Under the pieces are notes generated by a model. That model did no database searches. It was not told where the DNA came from and was given only the letters and a program-made list of their open reading frames with translations. A program made the position numbers and the translations under genes. From Minisyncoccota bacterium (GTDB lineage: Bacteria > Patescibacteriota > Minisyncoccia > Phycocordibacterales > Phycocordibacteraceae), in contig JALHPI010000003.1 in the NCBI GenBank assembly GCA_022842585.1, positions 1 to 48,686 of the forward strand: 48,686 bases of DNA. The letters are read 5' to 3'. Shown in pieces: positions 4,292 through 47,683 of this stretch (the stretch's first letter is position 1; each line of letters begins with the position of its first letter).

Positions 4292-4694
4292 GATAGGTAT
4301 CGTCGTTTCCTCCTTTAATTCCGACATCACCGAGTCTATGCTCGAAGGAGTACTCGCGACCCTCAAAGAATGGAGTGTAGCGGACGAGAACATTACGGTG
4401 TTCCGTGTACCCGGTTCTTTTGAGATACCGTACGGGTGCCTCAAGCTCATTAAGGAGAAAAAGCCCGACGGTATCATTGCCATCGGTTGCGTGATAAAAG
4501 GCGATACCGAGCACGACCGCTATATCGCAACCGCGACCGCCGACGGTATCATGCGTCTCACACTTCTGTATGAGTTACCAATTTCTTTTGGGGTTATCAC
4601 CACGAACACGCTTGAGCAGGCGAAAATTCGCTCGACCGGAGAGACAAATAAAGGAAAGGAAGCGGCGCTCGCCGTGCTTGAACTTCTCGCCTGA
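4236..4694 (+). CDS. ribH: 6,7-dimethyl-8-ribityllumazine synthase
   Basis: VPGSFEIP, GCVIKGDTEH, FGVITT, NKGKEAA. Confidence 0.95.
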   Translation: MQRGEYQKAREAKDGGKLKIGIVVSSFNSDITESMLEGVLATLKEWSVADENITVFRVPGSFEIPYGCLKLIKEKKPDGIIAIGCVIKGDTEHDRYIATATADGIMRLTLLYELPISFGVITTNTLEQAKIRSTGETNKGKEAALAVLELLA

Positions 4695-5110
4695 TGCGAA
4701 AAGTATTTCTTGCCGGAGGCGTACTTGTGCTCGCAGGGATACTCGGACTTTTCGCACTCAATCACCCGTCGTACTCGCTTGCGCATATTGAAATCGCCGA
4801 TACGCCCTTCGCGCGTGAACAAGGACTTTCCGGCAGAACTGAGATATCGGAAGACTACGGCATGCTGTTCATTTTTCCCGAAAAGGGCGACTACGGGTTT
4901 TGGATGAAAGACATGAAGGTACCTATCGACGTATTCTGGATTGCCGATGATGGAACAATCGTGGGCATCGAGCACGAGCTCAGCCCCGACACCTACCCGG
5001 AAGCGGTGCATCCACCTCTGCCGGTACGCTACGTGCTTGAGACGAAGGCGGGGACTGGAGCGGCGCGCGGATGGGTGGTAGGTACGACCCTTGCACTTCC
5101 TCTTCGTTAA
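4694..5110 (+). CDS. DUF192 family exported protein
   Basis: EIADT...REQGL, GMLFIF, FWMKDM..PID, YVLE; N-terminal hydrophobic segment. Confidence 0.85.
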   Translation: MRKVFLAGGVLVLAGILGLFALNHPSYSLAHIEIADTPFAREQGLSGRTEISEDYGMLFIFPEKGDYGFWMKDMKVPIDVFWIADDGTIVGIEHELSPDTYPEAVHPPLPVRYVLETKAGTGAARGWVVGTTLALPLR

Positions 5111-5113
5111 ACC

Positions 5114-5124
5114 TGTGGTATAAT
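5114..5124 (+). promoter_or_regulatory. Extended -10 promoter for rnpB
   Basis: TGTGG-TATAAT, with the hexamer ending 6 nt before the first P1 base. Confidence 0.75.
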
Positions 5125-5149
5125 TAAGTCGTGCTGGTACAGGCAGTCG

Positions 5150-5275
5150 CCCAGCCCCACTTTTACAGCGCGAAAATTTATTTATCGCCATAGTTGCGAT
5201 AGAAAAATTTCGAACGGGAAAAATTGTCTTGCAGACAATTTTTCCAAAGGATCGTTCTGTAAAAGTGGGGCTGGG
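5150..5275. mobile_element. Non-coding hairpin (MITE-like) element, copy 1, at the P3 position of rnpB
   Basis: Perfect 19-bp IR CCCAGCCCCACTTTTACAG / CTGTAAAAGTGGGGCTGGG with two internal stems. Confidence 0.8.
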
Positions 5276-5293
5276 AGGAAAGTCCGAACACAG

Positions 5294-5420
5294 CCCAGCC
5301 CCACTTTTACGGTGCGAAATTCTACCCATCAACAACTTGATAGTAGAAGAAATTTCGAACGTGAAATGTAGTCTGAAAGACTACATTTCCGAATAATCGT
5401 TCTGTAAAAGTGGGGCTGGG
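5294..5420. mobile_element. Non-coding hairpin (MITE-like) element, copy 2, between P5 and P7 of rnpB
   Basis: 17-bp IR CCCAGCCCCACTTTTAC / GTAAAAGTGGGGCTGGG; junction motifs shared with copy 1. Confidence 0.8.
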
Positions 5421-5590
5421 AGCAGGGTAGCGGGTAACTCCCGTCCGCCGTAAGGCGCGAGGTGCGAACAGAGACGTTCCTAAGCGAAAGCGCGGGAACA
5501 CCCTCCGAATCCGCAAGGAATACGGGGGTGAGCCTGAAGGGTAACCTACAGGCTGAAACGGCAAAATCCTTACCTCTGTGCAAGGCCGTG

Positions 5591-5897
5591 TCCAGCCCCA
5601 GTTTTAGGTACAATGAGCCTATGTTCTCAGTTTATGTAATCCAGCACGACTCTACTAAAGAGATTTATATTGGATTTACAAGCAATCTGCGAAGACGGCT
5701 CATTGAACACCAATCCCGTGGCAATACGTCGACGAAGCGGAAAGTGGGCAAATGGCATCTGATATACGCCGAAGCGTATCGCGCAGAAGCTGATGCTAGG
5801 CTCCGTGAACGTCGACTGAAAAGCCACGGGAGCGGGAAACAAGGGTTAATCAAGCGTATAAAGGCTAGTTTGCTTGATACCTAAAACTGGGGCTGGA
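5591..5897 (+). mobile_element. IR-bounded GIY-YIG cassette in the P15/P16 region of rnpB
   Basis: Perfect 20-bp IR TCCAGCCCCAGTTTTAGGTA / TACCTAAAACTGGGGCTGGA enclosing one ORF. Confidence 0.85.
5621..5884 (+). CDS. Small GIY-YIG nuclease (87 aa)
   Basis: MFSVYVIQ...IYIGFTSNLRRRLIEH...LIYAEAY...ARLRERRLK: the VY/YIG, R and E catalytic pattern. Confidence 0.9.
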   Translation: MFSVYVIQHDSTKEIYIGFTSNLRRRLIEHQSRGNTSTKRKVGKWHLIYAEAYRAEADARLRERRLKSHGSGKQGLIKRIKASLLDT

Positions 5898-5990
5898 AGT
5901 GCCGCTTGAGGCCGTCGGCAACGGCGGTCCTAGATAAATGACTGTCCAACGACAGAATTCGGCTTATCGGACCAGCACGTCAAATGCGAT

Positions 5991-6020
5991 ACACCCGCCT
6001 CACGGCGGGTGTTCGCTTTT
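5991..6020 (+). terminator. Intrinsic terminator after rnpB
   Basis: ACACCCGCC-tcac-GGCGGGTGT followed by a T-rich tract. Confidence 0.7.
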
Positions 6021-6114
6021 CTATATCCACTGTATTTCCTGGCACAGCTCCTATTGACGGATATCTCATGGGGTATACTTGACCCATTACCAACGGGCAC
6101 TTTCAAGGACATAT

Positions 6115-8529
6115 ATGCAGGACACACCTTCGATGAAGCGTTTTTCGTTCGACTCCGCCACTGTGTGGATACTCGCGGCCGTCGCGTTCCTATCCACCGT
6201 AGCGCTTATTCCGGGCAATACCGTCTCATTATTCGGGACTAAGGTATCGATTCTTGCGACCGGCGCGCTCATTGCGCTCATCGCATACATTATTGCGCGT
6301 TTGGTTCGGGGCAATATCGTATTCCCGCCGCTCGCACTTCTTGGGACCGTATGGCTTATACCGATTGCGTACGGCATCTCGACTTTGTTCTCTGGCGTAA
6401 ACCAGACGCAGGCATTGTTCGGCGTTGAGTTCGAAACCGACACACTCGGCTTCGTGCTCATCATGGCAGTGCTCGCAACGCTTGCGGCACTCGCGCTTCG
6501 CCAAGCTTCACACTACGCGCTCTTCTATAAAGCGCTCGGTGCGACCTACGCCGTTGTGGTGCTTGCACAGATAGGATTTATCATCGCGGCTAATAGTGGC
6601 GCACCAGTGAGCGCGGTAACGAATCTCGTCGGTTCATTCTCCGACCTCGGATTTGTCGCAGGACTCGGCATCGTCATGTCGCTTCTCGCGATGCGTTTCC
6701 TCACGCTCTCTCAGAAGGTGAAGATTGCGCTCTGGGTCGCGATTGCCGCAGGTCTCGCACTTGTCGTACTCGCAAACGCGGTACTCGTATGGGTGCTTGT
6801 CGGTCTTGTGTCGCTCGGCCTCTTCATCGAAGCCATTATGCGTCGCCGTGGAAGCGGAAATGACGCGGACCTTGAAGGCGTATCCACGATGTCAGCGGAT
6901 GAGGAATCCGAGGACGCGGGCGGGGAAGCTCGTTCACTCGGTGCACCACTCGTCACGCTTCTCGTATCCCTCTTCTTCCTTATCGGAGGTGCAACCATTG
7001 GAAACTCGATTGCCGCCTCGCTTGGTATCAACGTCATCGACGTCCGCCCATCCTGGCAGTCAACCTTTGACGTCGGTAGCCATACCTATGCTTCTTCACC
7101 GCTCTTTGGCTCCGGCCCAAGCACCTTTGGGGAGCAGTGGCTAAAATATAAGGACCGTGCCCTAAATGACACCGTATTCTGGAACGTTGATTTCGCTTCA
7201 GGCATCGGCTCTATCCCAACTTCGTTCATCACGACCGGTATCGTCGGCGTCCTTGCATGGCTCGTATTCATCGGATTCTTCCTCTACTCGGGAGTCCGTG
7301 CACTCTTGTTCCGTCTCCCTCAGGACCCGTTCATGCGCTTCGTATCGCTCGCATCCTTTACCGGTGCCGCATACGTCCTCGTCGCATCGTTCTTCGCGGC
7401 TCCAGGGGTCGTCGTCGTCGCGCTCGGATTTTTGTTTACCGGTCTCTTCATCTCGTCGCTCCGCTATGGCAAAGGACGTCTTGATTGGGGAATCGTGTTC
7501 TCGAAGAATCCACGCGTCGGCTTCGCCATTGTATTCCTTATGACGCTCATGCTGCTTGCGTCGGTGGCAGCCATCTACGTCGTGCTCGGCCGCTATATGG
7601 CAAGCTCGGCGTACGGAGAAGCTGCTCAGGCGCTTTCTACCGGCAATGTTGATGCCGCGGACGCTGCCGTCGCCCGCTCCGTCACCTTTGCTCCAAGCGA
7701 GCGTGCGTACCAGCTCTCTGCCGCTACCGGTATTGAGCGCATGCGCCGTATCGCGAACGACACCACGCTTTCAGCAAGTGTCGCGCAGCAGCAGTTCCAA
7801 GCAGCACTCTCGGGTGCCGTAAACGCAGGTCTTGCCGCTACACAGGTAGGACCGAACGATTATCAGAACTGGGTCGTGCTCGGTACGGTGTATCAAAGCG
7901 TCGCCTCGCTTGGTATCGCTGGCTCGTATGAGAGCGCGAAGAGCGCGTTCGAGCGCGCGATTGCCCTGAATCCTACAAGCCCGGTCCTTCCGTATGTGAT
8001 TTCCCAGCTTGAAATAGGGAAGAATAACGGAGAAGCGGCAGAAGCAAGCTTGCTCACTTCGGTCAACTTAAAACGAGACTACATTCCAGCAATCCTCTTG
8101 CTTTCACAGCTCAAGATTCAGCTTGGAAAGGCAAGTGAGGCGCTTCAGGCTGCGGAGGCGGCAGCGTACTTCGCTCCAAACGAGCCGGCCGTACTCTTCC
8201 AGGTAGGCATACTCCGCTCAGGAACAGGAGACGTGAGTGGTGCGGTCTCAGCGCTTGCGCGCGCAGTGGAGATAAACCCTCAGTACGCAAATGCCCGCTT
8301 CTTCCTCGGTGCCATGTACTCGATGCAGGGTAAGTATCCTGAAGCACTCGAACAGTTCCGCGCTATCGCAACATTCTCTCCGGAGAACGCGACGGCAGTT
8401 GCTCCGGACATCGCGTCGCTTGAAGGTGGTAAGAATCCGTTCCCTCCGGCCCGTATGAAGTCGCTCGGTATTCCGACACCTCCGGTAACGGAACCAGTAG
8501 CGCCTCAGGCCGCAGCTCCAGCGCCGTAG
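6115..8529 (+). CDS. Polytopic membrane protein (O-antigen ligase-like) with C-terminal TPR repeats
   Basis: Many TM segments, PLFGSGPSTF loop, TPR-like repeats (AFERAIALNP, ARAVEINPQYANARFFLG); start uncertain (6079/6115/6133). Confidence 0.75.
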   Translation: MQDTPSMKRFSFDSATVWILAAVAFLSTVALIPGNTVSLFGTKVSILATGALIALIAYIIARLVRGNIVFPPLALLGTVWLIPIAYGISTLFSGVNQTQALFGVEFETDTLGFVLIMAVLATLAALALRQASHYALFYKALGATYAVVVLAQIGFIIAANSGAPVSAVTNLVGSFSDLGFVAGLGIVMSLLAMRFLTLSQKVKIALWVAIAAGLALVVLANAVLVWVLVGLVSLGLFIEAIMRRRGSGNDADLEGVSTMSADEESEDAGGEARSLGAPLVTLLVSLFFLIGGATIGNSIAASLGINVIDVRPSWQSTFDVGSHTYASSPLFGSGPSTFGEQWLKYKDRALNDTVFWNVDFASGIGSIPTSFITTGIVGVLAWLVFIGFFLYSGVRALLFRLPQDPFMRFVSLASFTGAAYVLVASFFAAPGVVVVALGFLFTGLFISSLRYGKGRLDWGIVFSKNPRVGFAIVFLMTLMLLASVAAIYVVLGRYMASSAYGEAAQALSTGNVDAADAAVARSVTFAPSERAYQLSAATGIERMRRIANDTTLSASVAQQQFQAALSGAVNAGLAATQVGPNDYQNWVVLGTVYQSVASLGIAGSYESAKSAFERAIALNPTSPVLPYVISQLEIGKNNGEAAEASLLTSVNLKRDYIPAILLLSQLKIQLGKASEALQAAEAAAYFAPNEPAVLFQVGILRSGTGDVSGAVSALARAVEINPQYANARFFLGAMYSMQGKYPEALEQFRAIATFSPENATAVAPDIASLEGGKNPFPPARMKSLGIPTPPVTEPVAPQAAAPAP

Positions 8530-47575: not shown

Positions 47576-47683
47576 ACCCAGCCCCACTTTCCAACATGAC
47601 AACTTTTTATGTCGTTTTAAGTTTAAAACTCGGAAACCGTTCTTTCGGTAGTAGAACGACGTATGTGGAAAGTGGAGCTGGGT
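47576..47683. mobile_element. Intergenic member of the CCAGCCCCA hairpin family, upstream of gyrA
   Basis: ACCCAGCCCCACTTTCCA / TGGAAAGTGGAGCTGGGT (one mismatch), AT-rich interior with small stems. Confidence 0.75.

Follow-up and report, generated by a model that had tools for sequence, protein, structure and literature searches.

An inverted-repeat element family, one member of which encodes a GIY-YIG nuclease, inside the RNase P RNA gene of a Minisyncoccota bacterium

Organization of the rnpB locus

The window analysed here is contig C3 (48,686 nt) of a 657-kb Minisyncoccota genome (G000; 95.6% complete). Its RNase P RNA gene (rnpB; 5131–5978, + strand) is the only RF00010 locus of the genome and spans 848 nt, and removal of three inserts leaves a core of 288 nt (848 − 126 − 127 − 307), so the coordinates and sizes of the original prediction, which was made from the sequence alone, are correct. 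All parts of the gene described below lie on the + strand. The 5' strands of P1 and P2 (5131–5149), whose counterparts at the 3' end give 8 and 7 standard pairs respectively, are followed by a non-coding inverted-repeat (IR) element (5150–5275) in place of the whole P3 hairpin. After conserved region I, with the P4 and P5 5' strands (5276–5293), a second non-coding element (5294–5420) replaces the hairpin at the P5/P7 junction. The next segment (5421–5590) comprises the S-domain (P7–P12 region), the P5 3' strand, the P15 5' strand and L15; it aligns with positions 64–218 of the RF00010 model and takes part in the P5, P7, P8, P9 and P15 pairs. The hairpin of the P15 extension (P16 position) has given way to a third, coding element (5591–5897), whose terminal repeats are perfect over 20 bp, and the 3' strands of P15, P2, P4 and P1 together with P18 and P19 (5898–5978) were placed by the RF00010 alignment and by pairing. 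The arms of the three inverted repeats are at 5150–5173/5252–5275, 5294–5317/5397–5420 and 5591–5610/5878–5897. The P3 and P5/P7-junction positions stand as first proposed, while the third insert, originally assigned to the P15–P17 region, can be located more precisely to the P16 position, past the internal loop L15.

The coding element contains an open reading frame (ORF; 5621–5884, + strand) for a single-domain GIY-YIG nuclease of 87 aa, and a −10-like hexamer (TACAAT, 5609–5614, + strand) lies 6 nt before its ATG. The rnpB gene itself had been described as flanked by an extended −10 promoter and a terminator. An intrinsic terminator is present (5991–6022, + strand; hairpin 5991–6012 plus T-run), and the extended −10 promoter-like box (TGTGGTATAAT; 5114–5124, + strand, with TATAAT at 5119–5124) is seen directly and recurs before many orthologues, although the scan for −35/−10 promoters, which requires a −35 and missed this box, returned no site.

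The rnpB gene is immediately preceded by a DUF192 gene (4694–5110) and followed by a membrane/TPR gene, an arrangement that many relatives share. Elsewhere in the window, a further non-coding copy of the same IR family (47578–47681; strand unassigned) is located upstream of an ORF which, from its N-terminal sequence, we take to be gyrA-like. A LAGLIDADG-like ORF (529–1278; Pfam PF14528, E = 4.5e-8) ends 47 nt inside a tRNA-Ser(GGA) gene (1232–1317) on the same strand, and is the only ORF longer than 120 aa that overlaps any of the 7 tRNA genes of the window.

Conservation and folding of the RNase P RNA

The original prediction held that all conserved RNase P RNA segments are present, and the core indeed contains 112 of 112 conserved columns (defined by conservation of at least 90% across 31 genes that lack this element at P15). 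The median share of conserved columns is 0.99 in 16 genes with coding inserts versus 0.98 in empty genes. P1, P2, P5, P7, P8, P9 and P15 of the core consist of standard pairs only, and P18 and the P4 3' strand are present in the Rfam alignment of the locus. With the full locus as query, Rfam gave only RF00010 fragments of 49 and 23.8 bits (cut-off 100); among 11 orthologous loci, the cut-off was passed by 7 of 8 insert-free ones (121–131 bits) and by none of the 3 that bear inserts. The insert-deleted core scored 190.5 bits against a profile of 7 Rfam-validated orthologues, on which 14 held-out relatives span 131–239 bits, and none of 5 shuffles of the core matched. No second RF00010 locus was found in the 95.6%-complete assembly, and no protein-only RNase P (HARP) in G000, while rnpA and RNase III genes are present in it. 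The RNase P RNA of the locus is very probably functional.

Inserts 1 and 2 have identical ends. Pairing between them would leave the P4 5' strand trapped in a loop of 18 nt and is calculated to be as stable as pairing within each (−385.7 versus −385.1 kcal/mol; 0.83 versus 0.17 at equilibrium), so that the RNA would rely on the order of co-transcriptional folding, or on excision, to fold correctly. In simulated growing transcripts, insert 1 is self-paired with a probability of 0.86–1.0 until insert 2 is complete (by a model that cannot score the P4 pseudoknot), and correct folding of the insert-bearing RNA is plausible on this modelling. In the RNA runs X16 and X17, which contain only insert-free relatives, the inserts have little or no coverage and the contigs are multi-kb in length, so these runs do not bear on transcription.

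Verification of the assembly and empty sites in relatives

At least 72% of sampled words were contained in four runs of one study, and one of these (X1) was compared with the locus, together with three small-share runs. The inserts are reproduced by the separate X1 assembly, which speaks against a repeat-driven misassembly: its contigs match 4700–5448 with 2 differences, 5447–5590 and 5561–5927 with none, and 5898–6400 with 16. X1 is possibly a near strain and is not fully independent of the assembly; the contig over insert 3 extends 30 letters on each side, one below the bridging threshold, and no contig spans the whole locus. In X1, 5590 is also joined to 5898 at a depth of 5.9 with a side of 30 letters; this joint could come from an empty allele or from a different organism, and was left out of the evidence.

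Empty sites, for which a comparison with close relatives had been suggested, were found at all three positions in an 894-letter contig of run X5. This contig matches 4874–5150 (85%), 5421–5590 (97% over 170 nt) and 5898–6290, and carries 51 letters in place of 5151–5420 and 14 letters in place of 5591–5897. In X16, the 14 letters at the third site form a 5-bp hairpin unrelated to the element. The short native hairpins at these empty sites indicate that a native hairpin was replaced, without target duplication.

The inserts as one inverted-repeat element family

The assignment of the three inserts to a single family holds, with 78% identity between inserts 1 and 2 and an end motif common to all three. 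In the 657-kb genome, the exact 15-nt end motif occurs only at the six insert ends. Between genes, G000 has three more family copies of about 100 bp and one half site; these three copies are not flush but lie within other hairpin-like inserts, and only the copy in rnpB is coding. The other two GIY-YIG matches of the genome are one longer frame and one 89-aa frame, at which such ends were not seen. In two places (C16:7300–7495 and C19:2720–2890), the surrounding hairpin-like insert is of the GAGCGAAGCGA/GCGAGTGAG type, and the spacers are short or without insert in the relatives checked.

Pairing of the inverted repeats is predicted to loop the inserts out, as first proposed: their self-folding has z = −12.7, −12.9 and −10.0 against dinucleotide shuffles, none of which (0 of 200, 200 and 100 for inserts 1, 2 and 3) is as stable, and the basal stems are 19–20 bp. 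The further idea that element stems serve in place of native helices agrees with two observations. At precisely the positions of the inserts, insert-free relatives carry a short hairpin, and in many orthologues the element has shrunk to 32–34 nt, the size of the native helix. At the DNA level, whole hairpins have thus been replaced from base to base, without duplication and with the catalytic core intact.

We compared the family with known classes of inserts. As in IS elements and their MITEs, terminal inverted repeats are common to the coding and the short copies, and the short copies are best read as MITE-like derivatives with the ends of the coding element. However, no direct repeat that could be a target-site duplication was found at the six G000 sites, and in rnpB the native hairpin is replaced; the ORF is a GIY-YIG nuclease, and G000 has no match to a DDE (PF01609, DDE_Tnp_1) or HUH (PF01797, Y1) transposase. 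The two features expected of RNase III-excised intervening sequences (IVSs), a long basal stem and a host RNase III gene, are both present. In the element stems, the sense strand has 26 G-U versus 6 A-C mismatches, a weak indication owing to kinship and to intrinsic asymmetry of the ends. Three Paceibacteria genomes contain Y1 (RAYT-like) genes of 216–237 aa with their own palindromes alongside (L345–L348).

The GIY-YIG nuclease

The ORF matches Pfam GIY-YIG with E = 1.2e-13, and its Y5, Y16, R26, H30 and E63 are intact; Y16, R26, Y49, E51, E63 and K67 are invariant in 39 sequences. Against solved structures, the nuclease profile matched UPF0213 (E = 2e-12 and 2e-9) and Slx1 (2e-5), with I-TevI last (0.025). 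A structure model (pLDDT 85.7) gave UPF0213, HIGLE and Slx1 as the top Foldseek ranks, none at E ≤ 0.001. At 87 aa the protein is without a DNA-binding extension, and TIGR01453 matched only residues 3–39 with 19 bits (cut-off 56). No intron family, group I or group II, is among the 18 Rfam matches to the locus at E ≤ 10. Homing enzymes would be expected as one lineage at one site without target loss, but this lineage occupies several sites and the native DNA is lost.

The protein resembles Ssn enzymes in being a small single-domain GIY-YIG protein with the catalytic Tyr, Tyr and Glu. The NTS/SRM motif has no match in G000, exact or relaxed, and the ends seen here are a different, mutually pairing repeat. 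Six NTS-flanked GIY-YIG proteins form their own clade (support 99/96), with a different C-terminus, apart from all 39 CPR proteins (88 columns, long branch). As the NTS-flanked proteins are separate and G000 lacks the NTS, the nuclease is not an Ssn member, although it may work like Ssn enzymes.

Recurrence in other rnpB genes

A GTDB-wide exact pattern with a P15 extension of 285–315 nt gave 9 matches, and all 9 contain a sense GIY-YIG frame between inverted repeats flush with the conserved flanks, neither of which the pattern required. Seven frames are intact and two have one internal stop; five of the nine have repeat ends as seen here and four have those of a second family. The rnpB gene of L094 (about 940 nt) carries two GIY-YIG elements of different families, at P15 and P19, plus a short copy at the junction, and a third repeat family has its ORF in P3 (L040). 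A metagenome scan for the left end of the element at P15 yielded 62 loci; 15 of these are duplicates and 3 were not closed, which leaves 44 unique closed elements. Among the 44, 7 are coding (305–309 bp) and 37 are short (32–126 bp), including 11 of 32–34 bp.

Altogether, at least 17 distinct rnpB genes contain a GIY-YIG frame, 15 of them intact, with three repeat families at P3, P15 and P19. Identical loci were counted once (L093 = L004, L087 = L057, L092 = L196, and L130 with the same protein as L087). These counts are lower bounds from strict patterns, and most genomes of the order are without such a gene. At the sites not fixed by the patterns, 7 of 8 other copies at P3 are flush, and 6 of 7 at the junction are in the same register. 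Within the genus, the family is present in the rnpB of 1 (G005) of 28 other genes parsed, and two further genes have short copies. The same gene design was found in records titled Kaiserbacteria, Yonathbacteria, Paceibacterota/Minisyncoccia, unclassified bacterium and, in one case, Saccharibacteria; one record titled Kaiserbacteria is identical to a same-genus locus. Within the order, the nuclease gene in rnpB forms a family-wide pattern and not a one-off, and the locus of G000 can be regarded as real, recurrent and probably functional.

Unrelated non-coding palindromes of 100–170 nt also occur at the P5/P7 junction, P15 or P19 of rnpB genes (L007, L023, L025, L031, L036, L042, L049, L052 and L055), and the gene of L023 contains the same palindromic unit of about 120 nt twice. 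Long 5' segments obtained for G042, G055, G058, G045 and G037 in the same comparison are parsing artefacts.

The wider nuclease lineage and its evolution

Homologues at E ≤ 1e-12 were found in 64 of 301 genomes of the order. Most of the 30 homologue loci inspected are units of 275–330 bp with inverted repeats of 14–26 bp at the ends, located in rnpB, at rRNA-like hairpin sites, beside tRNA genes and between genes. From flank motifs we take the rRNA sites to be 16S h6/h9 and 23S H63/H25/5' region; Rfam gave no label to these rRNA-embedded loci. The 23S 5' site of G000 is empty, with a 19-nt hairpin where L064 and L067 carry the element (one comparison only). Five GIY-YIG elements with GCCCC-type ends (L072, L073, L074, L083 and L205) lie immediately before tRNA-Val or tRNA-Ala genes, and their right ends run into the tRNA 5' end. 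A tRNA insertion in L076 was not upheld (an intact tRNA-Thr gene lies upstream), and an aragorn intron-tRNA call on C15 was disregarded. About 70 nt before rpsN (L220–L224), a conserved TTTGACAG-hairpin and, after it, a second, short hairpin with a T-run stand directly before the S14 gene in 5 of 5 genus relatives; this is a possible cis-regulatory element.

The proteins at rnpB P15 form one clade (95/93) together with P19, 23S and intergenic copies, and each repeat family goes with its own nuclease clade. A tree of rnpB cores places coding hosts among empty ones at strongly supported nodes, and the P15 site of sister hosts can be occupied by different families. Element clades roughly follow host clades, which suggests spread mostly among kin. 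All 55 pairs of the 11 intact family-A ORFs have a higher pS than pN, and their dN/dS is 0.07–0.20 in the unsaturated pairs listed, and family B has dN/dS of 0.03–0.10 in 3 of 3 pairs; judged by these substitution ratios, the ORF is under purifying selection. A −10-like hexamer, from a list chosen after viewing the data, precedes the ATG in 22 of 45 related ORFs, mostly 6 nt away (shuffles: mean 1.7, maximum 7), so a leaderless internal promoter is probable.

In 121 genomes of the genus, the exact end motif occurs 19 times in G005, 12 in G000 and 10 in G360, and at most 4 times elsewhere. The best nuclease matches in the same 121 genomes are those of G000, G005 and G360 (self, 94 and 87 bits; next 79), each in rnpB P15. 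The three genus genomes with the most short copies are therefore also those with the nuclease gene in rnpB, but this co-occurrence amounts to about two independent cases, given the kinship of G005 with G360 and the internal stop in the ORF of G360. Identical recent copies at two sites were not found; the exact pattern of the autonomous element gave 0 matches in viral contigs, the nuclease protein had no match in plasmids, and a word-index protein search for it gave only 5 matches.

A possible mechanism and alternative explanations

We propose, with a probability of about 0.6, that a working rnpB gene was colonised three times by one small selfish element family that swaps hairpins. The family is in all likelihood mobile, and its GIY-YIG protein is likely to be the mobiliser. 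The autonomous member would be a unit of about 300 bp, in which terminal inverted repeats of 20–26 bp surround a leaderless single-domain GIY-YIG gene. The nuclease may recognise hairpins in single-stranded DNA, such as transforming DNA or replication or transcription bubbles, and nick at the stem base, after which host repair would install the element hairpin for the native one; for this cut-at-base swap we see not far short of an even chance. Homologous recombination through the conserved rnpB flanks probably aids spread at an occupied site among kin. As a peripheral hairpin is exchanged in its entirety, the element's own stem would become the helix, the catalytic core would be untouched, and deletion could later shrink the stem to native size. 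The P15 extension may be a safe haven for the coding copy. For the transcript, two fates have about even odds: it would keep the inserts as looped-out stems, or RNase III would cut them out, so that the ribozyme is in pieces but still folded. Somewhat more tentatively, the family could represent an undescribed class of transposable element, a unit of about 300 bp with an Slx1-like GIY-YIG protein as its only enzyme, which swaps its own hairpin for a resident DNA hairpin.

In favour of the hairpin-swapping account are the sole, intact rnpB core with rnpA present, the flush replacement at P15, P3 and the junction, the relative contig empty at all three sites, the coding hosts scattered among empty ones, the sister hosts with different families, the one protein lineage at P15, P19, rRNA and intergenic sites, the purifying selection, the coincidence of numerous end motifs with the nuclease in three genus genomes, the ComEC gene of G000 and its lack of a Y1 or DDE_Tnp_1 match, and the cutting of single-stranded DNA by the related Ssn enzymes next to their hairpin repeat (PMC11893778). 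Several points weigh against it. A lone nuclease is not known to have strand-transfer activity, and an element tree that roughly follows the hosts, with synonymous sites near saturation, also fits old vertical inheritance. Cross-pairing of inserts 1 and 2 prevails at equilibrium, the genus co-occurrence comes down to about two independent cases, the intergenic copies of G000 are nested, and identical recent copies at two sites were not found. A single old insertion at P15 could have been kept for restriction of single-stranded DNA or for protection of its own site; empty relatives would then have arisen through recombination with empty alleles, and jumps to new sites would be rare accidents and not an evolved transposition pathway. 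The matching of element and host clades (L004/L092/L125, L057/L086/L149 and L056/L120/L134/L135) and the strong purifying selection agree with such a history, as do the activity of SsnA, which lowers transformation by repeat-bearing DNA (PMC11893778), and the ComEC genes in 4 of 5 genomes checked, G000 included. We consider it unlikely, because P15 is occupied by one repeat family in L090 and by another in its sister hosts L089/L091 (support 99/98), L094 carries both families and L040 a third one in P3, short copies are also found at P3, at the junction, in P19 and between genes, and a close relative is empty at all three sites. Alternatively, another enzyme, either a REP-associated Y1 transposase or host recombination, could move hairpins into loops, with native stems trimmed later and the GIY-YIG gene as a passenger. 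Y1 transposase frames do exist in 3 of 5 genomes checked (G005, G360 and G310), nested copies occur in intergenic regions and in two rnpB genes, and the rnpB genes of this order also gather unrelated non-coding palindromes. But none of 4 Y1 loci has a CCAGC-type end in the flanks examined, the Y1 loci having repeats of their own; G000 is without a Y1 match, most junctions are flush, and each repeat family goes with a nuclease clade of its own, which makes this explanation quite improbable.

Classical homing, in which a double-strand break in an empty rnpB allele is repaired by gene conversion from the filled one, would account for the repeated occupation of one site with conserved flanks, and GIY-YIG domains do occur in homing enzymes (PMC1564403). 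It is nevertheless very improbable for a protein without a DNA-binding extension that is nearer to UPF0213 and Slx1 than to I-TevI, whose lineage is found at unrelated sites and whose element in rnpB has displaced native DNA and not just interrupted it, and the GIY-YIG inserts of CPR rRNA genes were also judged to be outside homing (PMC11270868). The chance that the locus is a misassembly or a dead gene is slighter still. The failed Rfam cut-off, the possibility of a second rnpB in the missing part of the genome, misfolding by cross-pairing and the short reach of the X1 contig over insert 3 would speak for it; the X1 contigs that reproduce 4700–5448 and 5561–5927, the complete set of conserved columns and 16 other genes of the same design speak against it.

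Comparison with known systems and significance

The closest known kinds are the GIY-YIG inserts of CPR rRNA genes, Ssn-like repeat-nuclease pairs and intervening sequences. The first are sparse, non-intron inserts in 16S and 23S rRNA genes (PMC11270868). They share with the present elements the hosts, the protein class, the absence of group I/II introns and the scatter over variable stem-loop sites, and the rRNA copies found here belong to the same protein lineage as the rnpB nucleases. In contrast, terminal repeats, a link to short non-coding copies, hairpin replacement and rnpB do not appear in the main text of PMC11270868, in which "RNase P" and "inverted repeat" have 0 occurrences. Ssn enzymes (cd10448) cut single-stranded DNA beside their own hairpin repeat, and an IS-like origin was hypothesised for them (PMC11893778). 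They are also small single-domain GIY-YIG proteins, with Y6/Y17/E64 corresponding to Y5/Y16/E63 here, and their gene lies between its own repeats, which are also dispersed without the gene (PMC11893778). However, the NTS repeats are separate 28-nt hairpins, mostly outside genes (PMC11893778), whereas here both ends pair across the gene and replace hairpins of structural RNAs; "Patescibacteria" and "CPR" have 0 occurrences in the main text of that paper. RNase III-excised rRNA intervening sequences are likewise stem-closed inserts at variable helices, some with an ORF, and G000 has RNase III, but they are known from rRNA and encode a different ORF family, 23S_rRNA_IVP (PMC11270868).

Diverged CPR RNase P RNAs are also missed by Rfam cut-offs, have large helix extensions, including one extended P15, and have frequently lost P16/P17 and the UGG motif; the section of that paper covered here mentions neither a mobile element nor a repeat family or ORF (PMC8172020), and its extended P15 may be such an element. 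Autonomous genes with short non-autonomous palindromes are also known from REP/RAYT systems, MITEs and Rickettsia palindromic elements (PMC10969869, PMC3184786). The partner enzyme here is GIY-YIG and not HUH or DDE, target duplication is absent, the native hairpin is lost, and the coding copy itself lies inside a ribozyme gene; the MITE review has 0 occurrences of "GIY" and "RNase P". No protein-coding gene inside rnpB and no report of this repeat-bounded family was found in searches of full-text literature that take in few subscription journals. Rickettsia palindromic elements in rnpB and tmRNA genes and cyanobacterial repeats in rnpB form a precedent for non-coding repeats in this gene.

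A nuclease gene in a probably mobile hairpin within an essential ribozyme gene, present in this bacterium and in at least 16 relatives, points to an overlooked route by which selfish DNA may enter essential RNA genes without breaking them, and suggests that mobile DNA can replace variable RNA helices wholesale. Such elements could also explain why non-intron GIY-YIG inserts and many short inserts occur in CPR rRNA, and why CPR RNase P RNAs have extended helices and escape detection by Rfam. The matched empty and filled sites, together with the 87-aa enzyme, would allow a direct test of repeat mobilisation by a small stand-alone GIY-YIG protein, as hypothesised in PMC11893778. If the family is indeed an undescribed class of transposable element, the P15 extension of an active RNase P RNA of 848 nt would harbour a protein gene, and the element would land harmlessly in ribozymes and rRNA, where shrunken copies would become new helices of the host.
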